64,000 nt of DNA from an uncultured delta proteobacterium (GTDB lineage Bacteria > Myxococcota_A > Polyangia > Polyangiales > B10-G4): positions 320,001-384,000 of the forward strand of contig CAVSGI010000009.1 in assembly GCA_963727445.1 (NCBI GenBank), in the 5' to 3' direction. The translations under genes were made by a program, and so were the position numbers. Numbering within the stretch: position 1 is the stretch's first letter; the number at the start of each line of letters is the position of its first letter. Below the pieces are notes generated by a model. The model searched no databases and was not told where the DNA came from. It saw only the letters and a list, made by a program, of their open reading frames with translations. Below are positions 3,296-16,752 of the stretch, piece after piece.

Positions 3296-5971
3296 ATGGC
3301 GTCGCCTGAGCAGACCTATCGAGGGCCGGTCGGCAAGACCCGCCGCGAGAGCGTGCACGTCACCATCCCCGGTGGGCACGTGCGCTCGGTGGAGGTCTAC
3401 GTCGCCGTGGACGTTCAGGCCGACCCGAAGCTCAAGGACGCCGCCCTCGCGGGCGCGCTCCATCGTTTCGAAGGGGGCGAGGAGCTCGCCATCCCCTTCG
3501 TCTACCACGACCCGGCCGCGCGGAAGCTCGCGCTGGTCATCCCGGAGACCCTTCGCCATCGCGAGCTCCTCGAGCGGGCGCGCTTCTTCGAGCGCCTCGC
3601 GGAGGACACCGAGCACGAGATCCCGACCTACGTTCGGGCCGCCACCGTCGTGATCGGGCCCAAGGAGCTCGCGGAGTATCTGGAAGCCGAAGGGGAAGCG
3701 AGCGCGGACGCTGCGCGACACCAGCGGGACTTCGACGCGCGCGATCGCGAGCTCGCGGCGCGCGAAGCAGCGATCGCCACGCGGGAAGCGGCGCTCCAGA
3801 AGAAGGACGAGAAGCTCTTCGAGCGCGAAGCGCGACTGAAGACGCGCGCCGAGGAGGTGACGCGTCAAGAGGACGAGGTGCGGAGCGCCACCGAGATCGT
3901 CGAGGCGCGACAGCGCGAGATCGATCTCTCGGAAGAGGAGCTCGTGCGTCGTCTCGCCGAGGTGCGCGCACGCGAGGAGCGGGTCCGCGCAGGCGGGGGC
4001 GCGAAGCAGCCGGCGGCCAGTCCGGTGGCGACCGAGGCTGCACCGGCCGAGGCGGTGGAGGCGGAAGAGATCGAAGAGATCGAGCCGCTCTCCACCTCCG
4101 AGATCGAGCCCATGGCCGTGGAGCCCACCAAGGTGCGCAGCGCCGAGGACGTGGAGCTCGCGGCCTCGGTGGAGGAGCTCGGTGAAGAGGTCGAGGAGAT
4201 CATCGACGAGGACGACGTCGAGGAGCTCGACGAGTCGGACATGATCCAGGAGGTCACGGGGGTCACCTCGAACCCCGCCTCGCCGTCCGACGTACCGTCG
4301 GCGGTGGACCAGTCCGGCAGCCATCCCCGCGCGGCCGTCCCGCCCCCCGAGGGCTTCCTCGGCGACCGCACCCTCGAGATGGCGGCGAAGTTCGACGACG
4401 CCGTCTGGCTCTTCGCCCGCCTCGAAGAGGGGCACGAGTCGGCGTATCGCCAGGGCGGCGACCTCCTGGTGCAGCTGGTGGTGGTGCAGGGCTATCCGGT
4501 CGTGCTCCTGGCGCTGGTCGAGATGGAAGCCGAGGGGCGTCCTTTCGTGCGGCGCGTGGCCCTCGACCCCCACGACTCCACGGATCGCGCCATCCTCGAG
4601 GCGCTTCGCTCCGATTTCGAAGCCACCGTCGCGCTCTTCGGGCCCAGCGGTCGCTTCGAGAGAACGGTGGAGGTCGCCGCGCCGCGGCGGGTCAACGTCG
4701 CCATGATCCTCGAGCGCGTCGCCCGCTCGCCCCGGTCGGAAGCGCGCACCGACGCAGCCACGGCGAAGGAACGGGCGCTCGCCGCGCCGCCGCCGGTGGC
4801 GGAGAGCGAGCATCCTTTCGTCGCGGAACCCGAGACCGCGCGCTCCGCGGCCGACGCCGCCAACGCGCTCGCGCGACTCGTCGCCTGGTCGACGCCGCAG
4901 CGACTCGACCGCGTGCTCCTCGCGCTCTCGGTGCCGCGCGACGTCGTCGATGCCGCGATGCGAAAGATCCTCACCGACGCGGTCGACCGCGGCCTCGCGC
5001 TCACGCCCGAGCTCACGACCCGCGCGCTCGCGGTGGGCGTCGCGCCGGATCTGCCGACCCTGATCAAGCGACAGATCGAGCGCTTCCGCGAGACCACCGC
5101 CGACGATGAAGCCGGCGGCCTGTCACCCTCGGACGTGGCGGACAACTGGGAGGCGCTCCTCGAAGCGGCCGGCGAGAGCGACATCCCGGTCGACGGCGTG
5201 ACCCACGAGCGCGCCTGGAACGCGATCCGCCGTGTGCGCGGCGAGGGAAGCAGCGGCACCGGCCAGCACGACCTGGCGCAGGTCGATCCCGAAAAGCTCC
5301 CCGAGATGGGCAAGCTCGAGTTGGTGATGCTCCTCGATCATCCGAAGCTCCGGCACAACGCCGCTCTGGAGCTGGCCAAGCGCTCGGACCCCGAGATGCT
5401 GGAGACGCTCTACAAGGCTGTCCGCAAGATGCCGCGGGGCGAGGTGGTGAAGGTGGTGCCCAAGATCGTGGGCTATGGCGAGGTCGCCGGCGATGCCCTC
5501 ATCGATGGGCTCTCGGCGCGGAAGACCTTCGTCCGGCAGGCCTCGGCGCTCGGGCTCGGTGAGCTCAAGCTTCGCCGGGCGGTGGTCCCGCTGGCCCACG
5601 CCCTCTTGGCGGAGGACAGCGACGTCTGGCCGGAGCTGGCCCGGGTGCTGGGGAGCTTCGGCAGCTCTGCGTTCCGTCAGGTCACCCGCTCCCTCAAGGA
5701 CCCGAAGGGGCAGGATGAGCGGCTGAAAGTGACGTTGGCTCATCTTTCCAACCATGGATGCGAGTCCAAGGTCGAGGCGCTCACCCGCGATTCCGACAAG
5801 GGGACGGCCGTGATCGCCCTCGAGGCGATGACGTTACGTCATGATTTGAAGCGCCTGGAGGATTCTCTTCGCAGCGGCAAGGAATATGAGGGCGAAGATG
5901 CCGTCCTCAAATTCTCGAACCGTTTCTATCGGGAGCTTCAGGGGGACGATCCGCCCGGAGTTCCGTCCTAA
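3296..5971 (+). CDS. large protein: CpXC-like N-domain, coiled coil, acidic linker, C-terminal HEAT repeats
   Basis: VDV..DP.L...L.G.L..F and PFVYHDP motifs; E/R heptads; HEAT-like VRQASALGLGELK..AVVPL. Confidence 0.8.
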   Translation: MASPEQTYRGPVGKTRRESVHVTIPGGHVRSVEVYVAVDVQADPKLKDAALAGALHRFEGGEELAIPFVYHDPAARKLALVIPETLRHRELLERARFFERLAEDTEHEIPTYVRAATVVIGPKELAEYLEAEGEASADAARHQRDFDARDRELAAREAAIATREAALQKKDEKLFEREARLKTRAEEVTRQEDEVRSATEIVEARQREIDLSEEELVRRLAEVRAREERVRAGGGAKQPAASPVATEAAPAEAVEAEEIEEIEPLSTSEIEPMAVEPTKVRSAEDVELAASVEELGEEVEEIIDEDDVEELDESDMIQEVTGVTSNPASPSDVPSAVDQSGSHPRAAVPPPEGFLGDRTLEMAAKFDDAVWLFARLEEGHESAYRQGGDLLVQLVVVQGYPVVLLALVEMEAEGRPFVRRVALDPHDSTDRAILEALRSDFEATVALFGPSGRFERTVEVAAPRRVNVAMILERVARSPRSEARTDAATAKERALAAPPPVAESEHPFVAEPETARSAADAANALARLVAWSTPQRLDRVLLALSVPRDVVDAAMRKILTDAVDRGLALTPELTTRALAVGVAPDLPTLIKRQIERFRETTADDEAGGLSPSDVADNWEALLEAAGESDIPVDGVTHERAWNAIRRVRGEGSSGTGQHDLAQVDPEKLPEMGKLELVMLLDHPKLRHNAALELAKRSDPEMLETLYKAVRKMPRGEVVKVVPKIVGYGEVAGDALIDGLSARKTFVRQASALGLGELKLRRAVVPLAHALLAEDSDVWPELARVLGSFGSSAFRQVTRSLKDPKGQDERLKVTLAHLSNHGCESKVEALTRDSDKGTAVIALEAMTLRHDLKRLEDSLRSGKEYEGEDAVLKFSNRFYRELQGDDPPGVPS

Positions 5972-6885: not shown

Positions 6886-8757
6886 ATGCGCCCCTGGGCT
6901 CCCCGCTCCGCGCTCACACTCCTCCTCCTCTGGGCGGGCTGCTCTTGCTCTTGCGCGAGCTGTGGCTCGACGACCACGCCAGAGCAGACGGTGCGAGCCC
7001 CGATTGGGCCGGAGACCGCGCTCGAGGATGATCGGGCGCACGCGCTCGAGCAGCGCCATCGGCTCGCGTGCGGGACGAATCATGCGTGCGCGCTCGATGC
7101 CGATGGGAAGGTGAGGTGTTGGGGCGATGCGGCGCTCGCGCTCGGCGCTCCCGAGGGGTCGTTCGTCACGCTCGCGGCTGGGCGATTCACGACCTGTGGG
7201 CTCCGCGCGGACCAGAGCGTGGCGTGCTGGGGGCCTCCGGGTGGCGCGGGGACCGAGGCACCCGAGACGGATCTCGTGTCGATCACCGCGGGCGACGAAG
7301 GGGCCTGCGGCCTCGGGGCCGACATGGTCGCCGTGTGCTGGCAGTACCCCGGCGGCTCATCGGTCGAAGGCGCTCCCTCCGAGCGCCTCCGCACACTCGA
7401 GACGTGGGGCGAGACGACATGCGCGCTGCGGCCCGACGGTACGCCAGTGTGCTGGGGGTTCGATCCCACACAGGGCGACTTCCCTTCGAACGAGCGGTTT
7501 CGCGCAATCGCCGTGGGGTGGTTGAAGCTCTGCGGCTCGAGTGATGACGGCGTGATGCGATGCTGGGGAGAGGGGCCGCGGGAGCCGTTCGGCGACGAGC
7601 CCATGACGCACATCGCCGGGCACTCTGGCGGCGGGGTGTGCGGTCTGACGCGCGCCGGCGCCCACGCGCGGTGCTTCGGCTTCGACGAGCGGGTCGAGAT
7701 GCCGGCGCGCGTGGATGGACCGTTCGAGGATGTCGTCGTGGGCCAATACTACGCCTGTGGGCTGGAGTCCGATGGATCGCTGCGCTGTTGGGGGAGCGCG
7801 CCCGGTGCCACGCCGGAGGGCTCGTTCGAGGAGGTCGTTGCGTGCGACGGGAGCGTCTGCGGTCGTCGCGCTGACGGGACGGTCGAGTGCGCCGGCAGCC
7901 CATACTACGGCCAGGCGCACCCACCAGAGGGCACGTTCGAAGCGGTCGCCTCCGGACGCGACCGCTCGTGCGCGTTGCGCAGCCCCGATCGGAGCGTCGC
8001 CTGCTGGGGCGGTCCCCCGTCGCTGCCGTTCGAGCCACCCGACGGGGCTTTCGCGTCGCTCGAGCTCGGCGATGGGTGGGCGTGTGGCCTGCGTGATGAC
8101 GGCCGCGCGGAGTGCTGGGGCAACATGCGCAATCGCACCGACGCGCCCTCGGACCCGGACGCGCGGTTCGCGCACCTCGACGTCGGCGGCGGAATGGCAT
8201 GCGGGATCACTCGCGAGCACACGGCCCGTTGCTGGGGGGAGAACTCCACCGACCTGCCCATCGGCTCGCTCACAGACGTGGCCGAAGTCGAGACGAGCGC
8301 GTCCTTCGTGATGGTGCGTCACCTCGACGACCACCTGACGTGCTTCACGATGCAGCTCCCGAACGGGGGCGGCGGCGGCTCGCCTGCGATGCACTGGGCA
8401 CCCGCGGCGTGCCCCGTGACCTCCGCGCGCGAGATCGTTGCGACTGACGCGCTGACCTGCTGGCTCACGGATCACCGCGGCCTCGAGTGCCGCTTCCAAG
8501 GCCCGGACGGCACGATGAGCGAGCCGCGGCGGGTCGCGGCTTCGGAGGTCCGTGACATCGTCGCCACCTACGACGTCGTCTGCGCGCGATTTCCCGACGA
8601 CCACACCGAGTGTTGGGGCAACAACGGCTGGGCTGAGACCGAGGTCCCCAGGGGTGCGCGCTTTACCGCCGTCGCCCCCGGGTACCATCACGCGTGCGCG
8701 CTGGATCCCGAGGCCCACCTCGTCTGCTGGGGGAGCTACGCGGGCACGCTCCTCTAG
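6886..8757 (+). CDS. RCC1-like repeat beta-propeller lipoprotein
   Basis: Many G..(H/T)(A/T)C(A/G)L..DG...CWG repeats; Cys-containing signal peptide. Confidence 0.88.
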   Translation: MRPWAPRSALTLLLLWAGCSCSCASCGSTTTPEQTVRAPIGPETALEDDRAHALEQRHRLACGTNHACALDADGKVRCWGDAALALGAPEGSFVTLAAGRFTTCGLRADQSVACWGPPGGAGTEAPETDLVSITAGDEGACGLGADMVAVCWQYPGGSSVEGAPSERLRTLETWGETTCALRPDGTPVCWGFDPTQGDFPSNERFRAIAVGWLKLCGSSDDGVMRCWGEGPREPFGDEPMTHIAGHSGGGVCGLTRAGAHARCFGFDERVEMPARVDGPFEDVVVGQYYACGLESDGSLRCWGSAPGATPEGSFEEVVACDGSVCGRRADGTVECAGSPYYGQAHPPEGTFEAVASGRDRSCALRSPDRSVACWGGPPSLPFEPPDGAFASLELGDGWACGLRDDGRAECWGNMRNRTDAPSDPDARFAHLDVGGGMACGITREHTARCWGENSTDLPIGSLTDVAEVETSASFVMVRHLDDHLTCFTMQLPNGGGGGSPAMHWAPAACPVTSAREIVATDALTCWLTDHRGLECRFQGPDGTMSEPRRVAASEVRDIVATYDVVCARFPDDHTECWGNNGWAETEVPRGARFTAVAPGYHHACALDPEAHLVCWGSYAGTLL

Positions 8758-8847
8758 CGCTCGCGTACCGGGGTGGTTTGTGTGATCGGGAGCGACGAGC
8801 TCGACGTCCTCACCGATCGTCGCCGCTCGACTCGGAGTCCCTCACGG

Positions 8848-10074
8848 TCAGTCCACCTGCGTGAACCTCACCAGCCCCAGCCACGGGCTCTGTCCATCGG
8901 CGAGGCTCGTCAGACCGGGCGTCTGCATCTGGCCGACGGCACTGATGCGTGGGGCGAGGGGCGCCGGGAGGCGGCGGGCGATGGCGCGGCGGGTGCCGAT
9001 GTCGGCGGCGATGCCCAGGGCCTTGAGGTGAACGCCGAGGGGGCTGAGGCGCCGGCCGAGGTCCTCTTCGTCGGCGCAGCTCAGGACGGCGACGTTTCGG
9101 TGGCCGGGGCTGAGGCGCAGCGGCGCGTCGCCTTCGAAGCACACCGCGTAGCCGTCGCCTTCGAAGAGATCGCCGCGGGTCGCGCCGACGCCGCGCCACT
9201 GGAGCTGCTGGGCGCCGCGATCCATCGGCAACGGGCCGCGCGGTAGCTCGGTGCGCAGGCGCTCGAGGGCCTCCGCGATCGCCTCGGCCAGCGCACGGGC
9301 GTCCTCGGTCTTCGCGTCGGTCCACACCGCGTGGGGCGACAGACAGCCGCGCTGGTCGTAGGCGGCGACGTCGAGGGCGATCTGCGACGCGACCTCGTCG
9401 ATGTCGGTGCGGCCGCCGGCGAAGGGCACGTAGATGGCGCCGAGGCCGTGGCCGTGGGGCACGAAGGTCGTCGTGGCCGGGAGCCGTGCGCGGATCTCGG
9501 CGAGGGTGGCGTCACTGCCGTAGGCGGCGACCATGTCGGCCTGGGCAAAGAGCGCATCCTCGAGCTTCACGTTGCCGCCCTCGAAGGTCAGGACCTCGAC
9601 GCTCGCCGCCACCTCTGGCGCGCGCAGCTCGATGGCGCGGCGCAGAAGCCGGGGGAAGACGTCGTCGCGTGAGGATGCCTTCGCGATCACTGGGACGCGC
9701 GCCAGGAGCGGCACGAGCATGGCGCGGAGCGAGGCGGTGAAGACGTTGCCCGAAAGGACGAGGGCCGCGAGGCGCGCTCGGGAGATGGTGGCGCCGTTCG
9801 GTGGCGTGAGTGAACGGGAGAGCGAGTGGAGCGCGCCGCGGGTCACGCCGCCGACAGCCGTCTCGAGCGCCCAGTCCACCATCTCTGCCGAGAGCCCGGT
9901 GCTCTGGACGAGGAGCCCGCGCGCCTCCGCGCCCGTCTCCGTTTCGCGATCGGCCAGCAAATCGGCCGCGTCCGCCAGGCGCGCGATCAGATCTTCCTCG
10001 TCCATCGCGCGGAGCACGCCCGCGGTCGCCGCGGTCTCGGCGGCGCGCCGCCGGATCCCTTCCATCTGACTCAT
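8848..10074 (-). CDS. LuxC-like acyl-CoA/acyl-protein reductase (ALDH superfamily)
   Basis: SGNVF, KASSRD, AYGSDATL, HGHG and YDQRGCLSP (LuxC catalytic Cys motif); ATGA overlap with the luxE-like gene. Confidence 0.88.
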   Translation of the reverse strand: MSQMEGIRRRAAETAATAGVLRAMDEEDLIARLADAADLLADRETETGAEARGLLVQSTGLSAEMVDWALETAVGGVTRGALHSLSRSLTPPNGATISRARLAALVLSGNVFTASLRAMLVPLLARVPVIAKASSRDDVFPRLLRRAIELRAPEVAASVEVLTFEGGNVKLEDALFAQADMVAAYGSDATLAEIRARLPATTTFVPHGHGLGAIYVPFAGGRTDIDEVASQIALDVAAYDQRGCLSPHAVWTDAKTEDARALAEAIAEALERLRTELPRGPLPMDRGAQQLQWRGVGATRGDLFEGDGYAVCFEGDAPLRLSPGHRNVAVLSCADEEDLGRRLSPLGVHLKALGIAADIGTRRAIARRLPAPLAPRISAVGQMQTPGLTSLADGQSPWLGLVRFTQVD

Positions 10075-11159
10075 CGGGCTCCCCTGCTCAGCGCCGCGTC
10101 CATGGCGAGGCCACAGCCCCGCGGGACCGCGTCCTCGGCGCGGCCGAGCAGCTCGATCCCGCCATCCACCGCGCGCGCGAGATCCGCGGTCTGGATCGCC
10201 GCGACCGTGTCCACGTTGGCGACGTCGTCGATGCGAAGGATGCCGACCTCGCCTTCGGCAACCGCCGCGAGCGACTCCGGGTCCACGGGTGTGGCGCGCA
10301 TCCAGCCCGGCACCCAGTAGCGCCGCGGTTGTCGCGGCGCGAGCAGCGTCGTCTCGTACATCTGGCTCGACAGCTCGGTCATTCCGTATTCGCTCACGAC
10401 GAAGCTCTCCGCGACGCCATAGCGCTCCGCGAGGAGGCGGCGCATCGCCACCGGCGCCACCTCGCGGGTGCGGCCCTTGAAGCCGCCGGTCTGCATGATC
10501 CGGCTTCCGTCCGGAAGCGCGAAGCGCGTCTGTCCGAGAGCGTCCTCGAGGTGCACGAACGCGAAGCTGGTGCCGAGGAGGGCGACCGGGATGGCGTCGT
10601 TTCGCGCATCGCGGAGCGCGGCCCCGAGGGCCTCCACGTCGAGGGCGTCGGGGCTGGCCACCCATGCCGAGCGCCCATCGCCGAACCATTCGTCGAAGCG
10701 ACCCAGCATGTAGGAGAGCGAGGACGCGGGCAGGGCGTGGGGCGGCGGCGCGACGAAGACCAGGCGCATTCGCGCGACGCCCGCGAAGAGCGCGTGGGCC
10801 GCGGCGGCGCGCGCGGCCCGGTCGTAGAGCGCGAGCTCGCGGAAGTGGTGTGCGCCACGCGCGCCGTGGGTCGTGCCGGAGGTCAGAAAGGTGCGAGCGG
10901 TGGCGCCTTCCGGAAACGAAGCGACCCGCGCAAAACGAAAGACGTCGGTCGGAAGCGCCGGGACCTGGTCGATGCTCTCCATCCGCCCGCCCCCGACGCG
11001 GCTCTGCACGAGGCGGCCGTAGGGCATCACGGCCTCGGCCTGCGCGAGCGCGATCGACAGCAGGAGCGCGTCACGCGCTTCGTCGTCCCGACTTCCGTCG
11101 GCGAGGCGATCGATCAGCGCAGCGGCGCGCGCGCGAAGCGCTTCGAGCGTCGCGCTCAC
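10071..11159 (-). CDS. LuxE-like acyl-protein synthetase
   Basis: TSGTT, SSLSYM, TGGFKGR, EYGMTELSSQ, IQTADL and C-terminal PRGC acyl-acceptor Cys; GTG start overlaps the aminotransferase stop. Confidence 0.9.
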   Translation of the reverse strand: MSATLEALRARAAALIDRLADGSRDDEARDALLLSIALAQAEAVMPYGRLVQSRVGGGRMESIDQVPALPTDVFRFARVASFPEGATARTFLTSGTTHGARGAHHFRELALYDRAARAAAAHALFAGVARMRLVFVAPPPHALPASSLSYMLGRFDEWFGDGRSAWVASPDALDVEALGAALRDARNDAIPVALLGTSFAFVHLEDALGQTRFALPDGSRIMQTGGFKGRTREVAPVAMRRLLAERYGVAESFVVSEYGMTELSSQMYETTLLAPRQPRRYWVPGWMRATPVDPESLAAVAEGEVGILRIDDVANVDTVAAIQTADLARAVDGGIELLGRAEDAVPRGCGLAMDAALSRGAR

Positions 11160-12490
11160 CCTGCGGCCTCGTTCGCGAGCACCGCTTCGAGCGCCTCCAC
11201 GAAGGGGTCGAGGAGCGCTTCGTCGATGATCAGAGGTGGGACGATCTGCAAGACCCGCGCGTCTCGCCCCGCCGGGAGCGCGAGGTAGCCGCGCTCGAGC
11301 AGCCGTCGCACCACGCGGAGGCAGAGCTCGCCGGACTCGAGCACCACGCCCGCGGCGAGGCCCAGCCCGCGCACCTCGCGCACCGGGGCGAGCGCCGACA
11401 GCGCATCGAGTCGTGCCCGAAAGCGCGCGCCCACTTCCCGTGCGCGCGCCGGCAGGTCCTCTTCCTCGATCACGTCGAGGGACGCGTGGGCGGCGGCGCA
11501 TCCGAGTGGATTGCCGAAGAAGGTGCCGGTGTGGATCGCCGCCCCGTCGGGATCGCCCCAAGCGGCCATCACCTCGGCGCGCCCCAGGAGCGCGCTCACC
11601 GGCAGGCCACCGCCGAGCGCTTTGCCCACGCACAAGAGGTCCGGCGTCGCTCCGTCGGCGACCGATCGAAAGAGCGCGCCCGTGCGCCCGAAGCCCGTGA
11701 AGATCTCGTCGACCACCAACAGGGCGCCGCGTTCGTGCGCGAGCGCTTCGAGCCCCGAAAGGAAACCGGCGGGTGGCACCACCACCCCACCCCGCCCGAG
11801 CATCGGCTCGACGAGGATGGCCCCCGCCCCCTCGGCTGGCCACGCGTCGGCGACGGCGCGCAGGGCCTCTTCGACAGCGACCGTCGCGCGTGGGTAGGGC
11901 ACGAAGGTCACGTGGGGGTTGAGCTGCGCCGCGAAGGGCGCCCGGAACGCTTCCGAGAAACCGCAGGCCGCCAGTGGCCCGTGGGAGAGCCCGTGATAGC
12001 CGCCTTCGAAAGCGACGATCCCCGGGCGGCCAGTGGCGAGCATCGCGGTCTTGATCGCCGCCTCCACCGCGTCCGCGCCGCCGAGGCCGAGCACTACCCG
12101 CGCGTCTCGCCAGGGTGCGAGCGCAGCGAGGCGCGCGAGGAGCGCGATCTTCACATCCGAGGGATGAAGATCGCCGAGGGCATGGATCAGCCTCCCCGCC
12201 TGCGCCTGCACCGCGGCCACCACCCGCGGGTGCGCGTGGCCGACCGCGGCGACGCCGAAACCGGCCGTCATGTCCACGTACCGATTGCCGTCGGCGTCGA
12301 CGACGTTGGCGCCCCTGGCCTCGGCCCAAACGATGGGATCGTGCGGGGCGCCAGCTCTCTCCCTCCGCCGCGCCCGCCGCGTAGTGAAGGAAGGGCACTC
12401 GGTGCGCGCGAGCGTCTCCACCAGCGCTTGGGCGCGCGGGCCGGGGAGCGGGGCCCGGACCGAGGGGGGAAGCTGACCGAGCGTCGTCAC
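11156..12490 (-). CDS. class III PLP-dependent aminotransferase (GabT/ArgD-like)
   Basis: DADGNRYVD, GYHG, DEIFTGFGRTG, PDLLCVGKALGGG (PLP Lys), HTGTFFGNP; start may be GTG 12490 or TTG 12526. Confidence 0.93.
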   Translation of the reverse strand: MTTLGQLPPSVRAPLPGPRAQALVETLARTECPSFTTRRARRRERAGAPHDPIVWAEARGANVVDADGNRYVDMTAGFGVAAVGHAHPRVVAAVQAQAGRLIHALGDLHPSDVKIALLARLAALAPWRDARVVLGLGGADAVEAAIKTAMLATGRPGIVAFEGGYHGLSHGPLAACGFSEAFRAPFAAQLNPHVTFVPYPRATVAVEEALRAVADAWPAEGAGAILVEPMLGRGGVVVPPAGFLSGLEALAHERGALLVVDEIFTGFGRTGALFRSVADGATPDLLCVGKALGGGLPVSALLGRAEVMAAWGDPDGAAIHTGTFFGNPLGCAAAHASLDVIEEEDLPARAREVGARFRARLDALSALAPVREVRGLGLAAGVVLESGELCLRVVRRLLERGYLALPAGRDARVLQIVPPLIIDEALLDPFVEALEAVLANEAAG

Positions 12491-12536
12491 TGCCGGGGTT
12501 GTAGGAAGTCGCGCGGCGATGAGCAAACGCCCGGGG

Positions 12537-13466
12537 CTACCTCTTCCAGGGATAGAAGAGCATCGCCTCGGAGCGCACCGTCCGCATCACGGCGGCGTCG
12601 TCGAGGAGCAGGACGTCCAGGGCGGCGCCCTGACCATCCCCCGCCTCCCGGAGCCGCTGGACGATCTCGTTGACCCGCTGGCGGAACGCGGTGTCGACCT
12701 TCAGCCCCACGGTCGGCATGGGGGCGCCGGGGCCACGGGCGATCGCGCAGAGCGCCGCCCACTCCACTTCGGGATACCCCCGGAGCACGTTGGCGAGGGA
12801 AGCGAGGAGCTCGTCGCTCGGCTTCTCCTTGAGCTTGTGTACCGCGACGCTCGAGCCACTGCCGAAGGTGGTGACGGCCGCGGGCGCGTCGTCGGCGCTC
12901 GCCTGGACCGCCGCACCGGCCGCTGCGGCCTCTCTCGCCATCTCCGTCGCGTCCGCGCGCCGGGCGGCGCTCACCGCGGGCACCTTCTGCGCGGTGTTGG
13001 CTTTCACCGCCTGCATCATCGTCGACGAGATGCGCCCCACGGCAGCGTAGGGCCCCGACGACTCGCGGCGGGCGGCCGGCGAGAGCAGCGGCTCCATCTC
13101 CTCGCGATCGATGTCGAGGGAGTGACTCGAGGAGATGTCGATCACCACGAAATGCAGGTTCTGACCGACCGCGTGATTGAGCGCGCCGCGGGCGCCGATC
13201 TCCTTGAAGGTCGGTTGGCCGTTTGGGTCGACCCAGCCGAACTGGGCGGCGGCACGGTCGAGCTCCTCTCGCGTGGAGAAGATCGGCAGCGCCGTCTGGC
13301 CATCGGCATTGGTGAGGGTGCGGAAATTCGAGTCGTCCGCCCCTCCCCAGGTGGGGACGTAAACCGTCCTTTGCGCCAGGGCGACGAGAGCATCGACCTT
13401 CGCCTGACCGCCTTTTTGGGCGTCAGTGAGGAGGCGGTGAAAGGGGGAGAGGGTGGAGTCTGTCAC
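12537..13466 (-). CDS. SseB family protein (SseB N- and C-terminal domains)
   Basis: VYVP..., DGQTALPIFST..EL (SseB_N); L...L...PEV..A.L (SseB_C); start set at GTG 13466 so it does not overlap the divergent gene. Confidence 0.78.
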   Translation of the reverse strand: MTDSTLSPFHRLLTDAQKGGQAKVDALVALAQRTVYVPTWGGADDSNFRTLTNADGQTALPIFSTREELDRAAAQFGWVDPNGQPTFKEIGARGALNHAVGQNLHFVVIDISSSHSLDIDREEMEPLLSPAARRESSGPYAAVGRISSTMMQAVKANTAQKVPAVSAARRADATEMAREAAAAGAAVQASADDAPAAVTTFGSGSSVAVHKLKEKPSDELLASLANVLRGYPEVEWAALCAIARGPGAPMPTVGLKVDTAFRQRVNEIVQRLREAGDGQGAALDVLLLDDAAVMRTVRSEAMLFYPWKR

Positions 13467-13560
13467 ACCGAAACAGATGATAACCGGGCGGATGTCACGG
13501 CTTGCAAGTTCGAGACAGGAACGGAGCAACTGAGCGCGGCCCGCGCCGATAAGCGCCGCG

Positions 13561-15168
13561 ATGGTCGCACCCTCTCTCCGCCTCCTCGCCACACTCCTGC
13601 TCGTGAGCGCTGCCCTCGGCTGCGCCCAGTCGGCCAGTTGCCCCGTCGGGACCGCATCCGACGAGGGCGGGCGCTGTTCGGCGGCCCCCGATGCCGCGCT
13701 CGACGATGACGCTGGCGTCGGCTCGCCGGAGCCCGAGCCGCCGGGCAGGCTGATCGTCCGAGTGCCCACTGATGTGACGTGGATCATCGCCGGCGACACC
13801 GCCGAGGTGGCGCTTCGTGCCTCGACCGCGCCCAGCTACTACGGGCCCATCACCATCATGCTCGAGGGATTGCCCGAAGGCGTCGCCCTCGCACCGGACG
13901 AGGACTTCGCGGGCCCCACCTTCGCGCTTCGAGCGGTCTCCGATGCGCCTGTCGGCGTGCGCGCGGAGGTGATGGTGCGCGCCTTCGTCACGGAGCGACC
14001 GGAGATCGCCGGCGAGGCGACTTTCACTTTGGGGGTGCGGGGCCGACGTGGTGAGCTCGACGAGAGCTTCGACGCCGATGGGATCCGCACCGACGTTCCT
14101 CTCGACGGAAGCCGTGACACGGTCACCCAGATCGCAAGGGCCGCAGAGGGAACTTTGATCGTCGGCGGCAACGGGCAGGCCGACGGACGTCAGATCGGCT
14201 TCGTCTCGTGGTACGCCCCGGATGGCTCCTCCGCGGGCGTCACCCAGCAGGTCGACATCCTCGGTGCGCGCAACACGCGAGTCCGGGGGGTGTTGCCCAT
14301 GGAGGACGGCCTGCTCGTCTCGGTGGAGGCCGACAGCGAGTACGTCCTGCGCTACGACGAGGACGGCCGCGTCGACCGCGGGTTCGTCACCGACCCGACG
14401 GTCGCCCGCCCGAGCGTGCTACACGGCGGCGCGCTCCATCGGCACGGCGACGGGTTCATCGTGAGCTTCAACGAACAGCTCGAGCGCTACCACGCCGACG
14501 GCACGCTCGACCGCGACTTCGGCGCGGAGGGCATCATCCCCGTCAGCGGTGCGCTCGTTCCACGGATGGCGTTCTTCTCGGACCGGTCCTTCGTGTGGGC
14601 GTCCACCTCGTACACCGCCGGTAAGGTGTTCATGCGTCTCGACGCGCATGGCGGGCGCCGCATCTCCTTCGGCACCCGCGGTGTGGTCGAGCTCTCCGGC
14701 ATCCGCTCGCTCTTCGGCATCGTGGCCCTCGAGGATGGGGCGATGATCTTCGCCGGCGACACCCTCGCCGTCTCCGCGGCGGATTTCCGGGGGGGCCTCA
14801 CCAAGATCACCCCGCGTGGCGAGATCGACAGCGCCTTCGGCGCGGGCGGCGAGCGTCTCATCGACGACGGCACCGGTGCTGCGCTCGCCCTCTACGGGAT
14901 CGCGGCGCACGACGACACGATCTACGGCTGGGGCACCCGCTACGTGGATGGCGCGCCCCTTCGAGGATTCGTCGTGGCCTACACGAGCGCTGGCACCCTC
15001 GACACGACCTTCGACCACGGCGGCTTCGTCGACCTCGGAGAGGGCGTTCTGCCGCGGGACGGCTTCGTCGACGAAGTGAGCGGGCGGTTGGTCCTCGCGT
15101 GCGACCGATCGTCGTCCTCCGATCCGGGCGCGCTGCACATGATCGCCGTCATCCGCCTCTGGCTCTGA
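13561..15168 (+). CDS. lipoprotein with delta-60-type beta-propeller repeats
   Basis: Lipobox LGC; repeats GELDESFDADG, GTLDRDFGAEG, GEIDSAFGAGG, GTLDTTFDHGG. Confidence 0.82.
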   Translation: MVAPSLRLLATLLLVSAALGCAQSASCPVGTASDEGGRCSAAPDAALDDDAGVGSPEPEPPGRLIVRVPTDVTWIIAGDTAEVALRASTAPSYYGPITIMLEGLPEGVALAPDEDFAGPTFALRAVSDAPVGVRAEVMVRAFVTERPEIAGEATFTLGVRGRRGELDESFDADGIRTDVPLDGSRDTVTQIARAAEGTLIVGGNGQADGRQIGFVSWYAPDGSSAGVTQQVDILGARNTRVRGVLPMEDGLLVSVEADSEYVLRYDEDGRVDRGFVTDPTVARPSVLHGGALHRHGDGFIVSFNEQLERYHADGTLDRDFGAEGIIPVSGALVPRMAFFSDRSFVWASTSYTAGKVFMRLDAHGGRRISFGTRGVVELSGIRSLFGIVALEDGAMIFAGDTLAVSAADFRGGLTKITPRGEIDSAFGAGGERLIDDGTGAALALYGIAAHDDTIYGWGTRYVDGAPLRGFVVAYTSAGTLDTTFDHGGFVDLGEGVLPRDGFVDEVSGRLVLACDRSSSSDPGALHMIAVIRLWL

Positions 15169-16673: not shown

Positions 16674-16746
16674 GCCCAGATAGCTCAGTTGGTAGAGCAT
16701 TCGACTGAAAATCGAAGTGTCGGCGGTTCAATTCCGTCTCTGGGCA
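16674..16746 (+). tRNA. tRNA-Phe (GAA)
   Basis: Acceptor GCCCAGA/TCTGGGC; D-arm AGCTCAGTTGGTAGAGC; anticodon arm TTCGA-CTGAAAA-TCGAA; T-loop GTTCAAT; CCA not encoded (CCG follows). Confidence 0.97.
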
Positions 16747-16752
16747 CCGAAG

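Follow-up and report, generated by a model that had tools for sequence, protein, structure and literature searches.

Within the 64,000-nucleotide stretch of contig CAVSGI010000009.1 analysed here (the window), which comes from an uncultured delta proteobacterium, three adjacent genes encode an aminotransferase, a LuxE-like protein and a LuxC-like protein. This trio likely converts 7-carboxy-7-deazaguanine (CDG) to preQ1, replacing QueC and QueF in queuosine biosynthesis, a reading to which we assign a probability of roughly 0.78. Two observations point to this role: the trio and QueC/QueF show a mirror-image distribution among genomes, and trio genes occur in operons with queD and queE. The chemistry also fits, since CDG and preQ1 differ by exactly the conversion of R-COOH to R-CH2NH2 that would be expected of such enzymes together. 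The trio itself is real, conserved and functionally coupled. All three genes lie on the minus strand, the aminotransferase at 11156..12490 (444 aa), the LuxE-like gene at 10071..11159 (362 aa) and the LuxC-like gene at 8848..10074 (408 aa), and they are joined by 4-bp overlaps, GTGA at 11156-11159 between aminotransferase and luxE and ATGA at 10071-10074 between luxE and luxC. This arrangement had been noticed in the original prediction, made from the sequence and its reading frames, and we found it exactly as described.

QueC (TIGR00364) and QueF (PF14489) were searched in the same 201 Myxococcota genomes that were surveyed for relatives of the trio. Genomes with the aminotransferase subfamily (E < 1e-75) or a luxE orthologue were taken as module-bearing (n = 169) and compared with those without the module (n = 32). 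QueC was present in 30 of the 201 genomes. QueF gave matches in 33, of which 26 were strong, six were weak and belonged to family f44, and one was FolE. Among the module-bearing genomes QueC occurred once and strong QueF not at all (1/169 and 0/169), against 29/32 and 26/32 in the genomes without the module. One genome positive for QueC and QueF and with a weak luxE match (G243, E 2.4e-6) was excluded from the module-bearing set; with it the QueC count becomes 2/170. The control gene panD showed no such pattern (76/161 aminotransferase-positive genomes, 21/40 others). The weak QueF matches in trio genomes were rejected as canonical QueF: of the six in f44, the four that were read have no catalytic cysteine, and the match in G005 is FolE. 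These f44 proteins are QueF-like T-fold proteins without the catalytic cysteine (L213:7220-7867, L214, L215, L216), and weak QueF matches were seen in 6/14 genomes of the family. The same opposition was visible within family f42, in which the sole genome of five that lacks the trio (G233) has adjacent queC and queF genes. The pair in G233 (L218:6105-7595), whose queF is of the long type and matches that of E. coli at 46%, looks like a horizontal replacement.

The pattern extended beyond the phylum. In a sample centred on Verrucomicrobiota, QueC was present in 104/131 genomes, and all three genomes with this aminotransferase were among the 27 without QueC; each of the three also had luxE, luxC and QueA, and one of them was the pre-chosen centre of the sample. 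Five further genomes, reached through their loci, had no QueC or QueF above the cut-off (0/5) and all had a QueD-like gene (5/5), although one of them may come from the phylum already sampled.

Direct links to the queuosine pathway were found in metagenomes. In L325 five overlapping genes follow each other on one strand: the aminotransferase (236-1549), luxE (1536-2468), luxC (ending at 3471), queD (3464-3898) and queE (3898-4584). Relatives of this aminotransferase are labelled WOR-3. Its LuxE escaped Pfam but was recognised by the family profile (150 bits); for QueD and QueE of this locus the best matches were their own NCBIfam models, though below the cut-offs. In L310 a queE above the cut-off shares a single base with the start of the aminotransferase gene and luxE-luxC follow 3.4 kb further downstream, and in L337 and L284 queE lies just upstream of the aminotransferase. 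In the metagenome scan as a whole, queD or queE accompanied 3/33 loci of the subfamily and 0/47 loci of its paralogues; for luxE/luxC the figures were 18/33 and 0/47. Looser neighbours were queD in L132 and L184, queE in L036 and folE in three loci.

The published pathway proceeds through FolE, QueD, QueE, QueC and QueF (PMC13329287, PMC11570991). In the host genome (G000, 9.47 Mb, 85.6% complete) FolE, QueD, TGT, QueA and QueG all scored above their NCBIfam cut-offs. QueE reached 272 of the 300 bits required by the closest model, and its orthologues adjoin queC in QueC-positive genomes. QueC and QueF were not found in this genome at its given completeness. Of the published pathway, the step from CDG to preQ1 alone is left unfilled in the host. 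The host QueD carries a CxxxHGH motif. All four types of tRNA with a GUN anticodon are encoded. The host TGT, read against that of E. coli, keeps the residues equivalent to Cys158 and Val233, which are described as characteristic of bacterial TGT enzymes that insert preQ1 (PMC3660597). The check for QueA covered six genomes, the host's among them. The host has a second, divergent QueA-family gene (L249:2393-3379 on G000:C8; PF02547, 192.7 bits), and G288 likewise has two QueA-family genes.

A mechanism, with substrate, intermediate, product and direction all inferred, can be proposed from the chemistry of LuxCE (PMC9157457, PMC12041015). The LuxE-like protein would adenylate the carboxylate of CDG with ATP to CDG-AMP and then bind the acyl group to C349 in thioester linkage. 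From there the group would move to C244 of the LuxC-like protein, where a hydride from NAD(P)H would release 7-formyl-7-deazaguanine, a known species that is released by QueF variants (PMC13740343). The pyridoxal phosphate (PLP)-dependent aminotransferase would then transaminate the aldehyde to preQ1 at the expense of an amino donor, and TGT, QueA and QueG would complete queuosine as usual. The enzymes may not need to channel their intermediates, as the aminotransferase gene often lies apart from the other two. The proposed net conversion is the same as that catalysed by QueC (preQ0 synthase) and QueF (nitrile reductase), and so are the upstream enzymes FolE, QueD and QueE and the downstream enzymes TGT, QueA and QueG. 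The proteins, however, are unrelated: QueC and QueF proceed through an amide and a nitrile and take their nitrogen from ammonia, whereas the trio would use a thioester and an aldehyde, receive its nitrogen from an amino donor and make no preQ0. The trio would consume a single ATP and a single NAD(P)H, whereas the QueC/QueF route spends ATP in two steps and reduces by four electrons.

The original prediction had stated that the catalytic motifs of all three proteins are intact, and the alignments with relatives confirmed this. The LuxE-like protein (Pfam LuxE, E 8.6e-12) matched chain E of the Photobacterium phosphoreum fatty acid reductase complex (7xc6_E) with an E value of 4.2e-11. In the alignment its residues K228, R340 and C349 fall on K238, R355 and C364 of Photobacterium LuxE, described as the adenylation pair (K238/R355) and the carrier cysteine (C364) (PMC9157457), and S94/G95, K228, R340 and C349 are invariant in 55/55 aligned relatives. 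We predict that it is an adenylating acyl-protein synthetase that activates CDG and carries it on C349. The LuxC-like protein (Pfam LuxC, E 2.7e-36) is a putative acyl-thioester reductase of the aldehyde dehydrogenase fold. Its lone catalytic cysteine, C244 within YDQRGC, is invariant in 54/54 relatives and corresponds to C296 of the Photobacterium enzyme. With the single sequence as query, phmmer found no match in the PDB; the family profile matched 7xc6_A (7XC6) with E 1.1e-36. The AlphaFold model (pLDDT 97.1) had its best structural match in the same chain (Z 40.9, rmsd 2.3, 396 aligned residues, model residues 1-408 on chain residues 44-458).

Folds and catalytic residues are thus common to the trio proteins and the LuxC-LuxE fatty acid reductase (PDB 7XC6; PMC9157457). 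There are also clear differences. Structural identity between the LuxC proteins is 16%, and both trio proteins fall far below the cut-offs of the curated NCBIfam models (36.4 against 550 bits for LuxE, 30.8 against 750 bits for LuxC). Unlike the LuxCE of luminous bacteria, the trio is coupled to an aminotransferase and no complete luciferase was found in its host. The trio falls outside the lux fatty acid reductase family, though it would work like the acid-to-amine cascades of LuxCE/TamAH type. Similar cascades have been described in the alkylamine modules of tambjamine synthesis, TamA/TamH (PMC9594044) and TabQ/TabE/TabA (bioRxiv 2025.08.11.669332), which likewise combine activation of the acid, reduction of a thioester to the aldehyde and transamination to the primary amine by a class III or omega transaminase; TabE clusters with LuxC. 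These modules use a phosphopantetheinyl carrier and a C12 fatty acyl group and belong to secondary metabolism. In the trio, by contrast, the cysteine of LuxE would serve as carrier, no carrier gene recurs nearby and the distribution is housekeeping-like.

The aminotransferase belongs to PF00202 (Aminotran_3, E 8.7e-94; 314.9 bits against a cut-off of 30.5) and remained below the cut-off of each of the 25 best NCBIfam models listed; the ESM Atlas returned generic names only. Its PLP lysine, K290, is invariant in 52/52 relatives, as is D261 of the DE motif. The AlphaFold model (pLDDT 96.5) has fold type I and resembles GabT, the closest solved structure being 4ffc (36% identity, Foldseek TM-score 0.90). 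The likeness to GabT and ArgD (PDB 4FFC, 1SF2) lies in this fold and the PLP lysine, with at most 36% identity in the structural GabT matches, but the active site differs. In an alignment with E. coli GabT and the ArgD of the host, L168 takes the place of R141, R233 that of E211 and Q415 that of R398; furthermore F264 replaces Q242, in a column that is mostly aromatic in the subfamily, and F78 replaces I50. R233, F78, G106 and D107 are invariant in 52/52 relatives, and none of the 52 has Arg at position 168. In a separate metagenome set, wherever this motif was read, Arg at 233 set the subfamily apart from its paralogues, which had Glu. R141 and R398 are reported to hold the carboxylates of the substrate in enzymes of the GabT type (PMC10827958), so that activity on precursors of ornithine, lysine or GABA is unlikely. 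The enzyme represents a distinct class III PLP subfamily, predicted to be a 7-formyl-7-deazaguanine aminotransferase. Two other aminotransferase-like regions of the host genome may be mentioned here. A frame of 1555 residues (G000:C10:1014103-1018770) apparently combines an aldehyde dehydrogenase with aminotransferase-like and acetyltransferase-like parts, as judged by eye, one aminotransferase region being matched. A BioA-like aminotransferase (G000:C13:60846-61600) shows a match that shifts frame near the PLP lysine, which points to a frameshift or an assembly error.

Relatives of luxE were present in 119/121 genomes of the host's order (a tally that includes G109, marked as unpublished and used for no other result) and in 169/201 of the phylum. 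The aminotransferase subfamily occurred in 161/201 genomes, once in each, and 160 genomes had both aminotransferase and luxE; the host has one luxE and one true luxC. To examine synteny, 15-kb stretches around luxE were chosen with preference for long contigs and a spread over families, 40 from the order and 40 from other classes. As had been proposed at the outset, conservation of the aminotransferase beside luxCE was surveyed, and all three genes were found together in 34/40 loci from the order and 27/40 from the other classes; the recurring order of the trio is not due to chance. The closest relatives carry the source labels Sandaracinaceae and Polyangiales, and all three genes also appear in records of the myxobacteria Sorangium, Polyangium and Minicystis. 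In family f28 the aminotransferase is unlinked, yet it is present in 20/21 genomes. Gene order varies: it is luxE-luxC-aminotransferase in records labelled Armatimonadota and Eremiobacterota, and aminotransferase-X-luxE-luxC in a Verrucomicrobiia record. Fusions join aminotransferase and LuxE (P0185, P0186), LuxC and aminotransferase (P0188) and LuxE and LuxC (L111, L113, L166), although in those known from a single contig indel errors at the overlaps might be responsible. Even a genome of 1.8 Mb (G059) retains the trio, along with queD and queE. Taken together, the pattern is that of a housekeeping pathway rather than of a secondary-metabolite cluster; across Myxococcota the trio is a mostly single-copy housekeeping unit. 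The original prediction of a module leading from acid through aldehyde to primary amine, and its conservation, are supported by synteny, co-occurrence, reordering and fusions; the substrates it proposed are not supported.

Clustering of neighbouring open reading frames revealed no fourth gene that accompanies the trio throughout the phylum. In the largest neighbour cluster, with 98 loci, most members were shadow frames on the antisense strand, and SseB, FHA-GGDEF and folK neighbours were each limited to certain lineages, so a conserved fourth gene was rejected. An FHA-GGDEF gene lies directly upstream of the aminotransferase, in the place that an SseB-family gene holds in the window, in L047-L049, L071, L073, L132, L134, L137 and others, several of them labelled Polyangiaceae. 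A divergently oriented folK is found just upstream of the aminotransferase in 15 loci, with at least one duplicate among them (L074, L079, L081-L085, L087, L089, L090, L092, L094, L097, L177, L190), and many of these loci have a SUF operon nearby. Viral contigs contained no luxE relative. They yielded seven aminotransferase matches, of which only L284 was subfamily-like (45% identity, with the invariant Arg kept). As L284 seems to be a piece of host DNA next to genes of a phage, viral copies of the trio were dismissed; its first part (L284:1-3411) contains the end of queE and a truncated aminotransferase joined to apparent phage terminase genes, and is likely a prophage edge or a chimera.

Several observations weigh against the replacement of QueC and QueF by the trio. 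Relatives are not independent, so that the QueC/QueF contrast rests on few evolutionary events and the p-values calculated for it are too strong. One genome (G277) has both the trio and QueC, and three have neither the trio nor QueC/QueF. The host genome is incomplete, and within the window no que gene is linked to the trio. QueE was detected in only 114/161 aminotransferase-positive genomes, with one query that also missed 9/30 QueC-positive genomes; divergent QueE-like proteins were present in all three weakly matching trio genomes that were read. Family f44 has luxE in 14/14, the aminotransferase in 13/14 and QueE in 13/14 genomes, but a QueD match in 2/14, and no QueD was seen beside queE in the loci retrieved from it, the search there covering the surroundings of queE and four further stretches. 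No preQ1 riboswitch reached the gathering score in 12 loci, though a riboswitch is not expected in every lineage. Finally, a gene for the salvage transporter YhhQ is carried by the host and by 69/171 genomes, so that salvage is possible. As for G277, its queC genes lie in a queC-queE-queC arrangement (L219:6716-9913) together with a second QueE of the Cx14CxxC type, possibly a DNA-modification or defence island; the queC copies around this different type of queE may form a separate island.

The occurrence of YhhQ, the mostly missing QueD in f44 and the small number of phylogenetic contrasts would agree with a different explanation, in which the trio turns another small core acid into an amine, preQ1 is obtained by salvage and the mirror image with QueC/QueF merely reflects lineage history. 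We consider this unlikely. YhhQ is absent or rare throughout entire families that bear the trio (f38 0/11, f33 0/6, f37 0/4, f28 1/17), and QueD, which salvage does not need, is kept in 146/161 aminotransferase-positive genomes. Nor would salvage account for trio genes in operons with queD and queE. Among candidate small acids, no holes were seen at panD (beta-alanine) or hemL (aminolevulinate). A beta-alanine route was rejected since panD is not anti-correlated with the trio, and a tRNA-independent aminolevulinate route since hemL is present in the host at 56% identity; hemA was not searched for.

The original prediction had named fatty or alkyl amines as one possible product, which would resemble TamA/TamH. 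LuxCE reduces fatty acids (PMC9157457), the LuxC-related TabE together with the transaminase TabA is described to make dodecylamine (bioRxiv 2025.08.11.669332), and the aminotransferase has a hydrophobic residue, L168, where GabT has R141. The structure of LuxC tells against it. In Photobacterium LuxC the segment P460-P488 completes an L-shaped hydrophobic cleft for the myristoyl group and its aldehyde (PMC9157457). The last residue of the trio LuxC model corresponds to Photobacterium residue 458, just short of this segment, and 52/54 relatives have at most 13 residues after R403. Because the LuxC family ends before the long-cleft segment, fatty amines are disfavoured. Furthermore, no acyl carrier protein was found among the Pfam matches of the trio proteins or of the 42 representatives of neighbour clusters that were scanned, and these representatives included no thioesterase, acyltransferase or lipid gene either. 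Fatty amines would also leave the QueC/QueF pattern and the queD/queE operons unexplained, and we regard them as an improbable product.

Action on 7-deazaguanine metabolites in some other way, such as in the reverse direction, in the recycling of an oxidised or deaminated base or in making another derivative of CDG, seems just as improbable. The genomic tie to QueD and QueE cannot fix direction or product, and tubercidin clusters are described to use CDG without QueC (bioRxiv 10.64898/2026.04.15.718813). However, adenylation and NAD(P)H reduction by LuxCE run toward the aldehyde (PMC9157457, PMC12041015), and TGT, QueA and QueG, all dependent on preQ1, are retained by the hosts. The other substrate class of the original prediction, in which the trio takes over the kinase and reductase steps (ArgBC or LysZY type) that precede an ArgD/LysJ-like enzyme when arginine or lysine is made, is highly unlikely despite acetylornithine and GABA transaminases among the best NCBIfam matches (all below cut-off), because the host has argB, argC, argE, argH, dapD and, beside argB, a separate ArgD above the cut-off that keeps R141, E211 and R398, all three of which the trio enzyme lacks.

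Queuosine synthesis has been described with a single route from CDG to preQ1, and genomes without QueC and QueF are taken to be incapable of producing the precursor. Should the trio make preQ1, most of a phylum and members of others would have to be reclassified as queuosine producers. It seems quite probable that there is a second, nitrile-free de novo route, supplying queuosine to the majority of Myxococcota and to parts of several other phyla, in which relatives of LuxE and LuxC reduce a heteroaromatic nucleobase acid to its aldehyde and the dedicated aminotransferase subfamily carries out the amination. A large unexplained group of LuxC and LuxE relatives would thereby gain a function, and a role in tRNA modification may be what they do in most genomes that carry the trio. 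A phosphopantetheine-free cascade from heteroaryl acid to amine would moreover be of biocatalytic interest. The literature searched, which lacked most subscription papers, yielded no description of the trio or of preQ1 synthesis independent of QueC/QueF, in line with the earlier statement that no characterised example of the trio was known.

The absence of luxA, luxB, luxD and luxG that had been noted earlier holds for luxAB, as the whole host genome contains just one partial Bac_luciferase match (44 positions), on another contig; LuxD and LuxG were not searched for. With no complete luciferase in the host genome, a role in bioluminescence was rejected. The host check proposed with the original prediction thus gave argB and argC as present and a luciferase match that is only partial.

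Around the trio, neither a sigma-70 promoter nor an excess of terminators over shuffled sequence was detected (window 8600-13700). An SseB-family gene (12537..13466, minus strand, Pfam SseB; its start codon is inferred) lies upstream, as previously noted, but the gap between its stop codon and the GTG start of the aminotransferase is 46 bases by our count and not 47. This neighbour occurred in 11/40 loci from the order and 0/40 from other classes, and is lineage-limited and probably outside the trio module. On the other side, a gene for an RCC1-repeat protein (window 6886-8757) is convergent with luxC across a gap of 90 bases. A tRNA-Phe gene is located at window positions 16674-16748.

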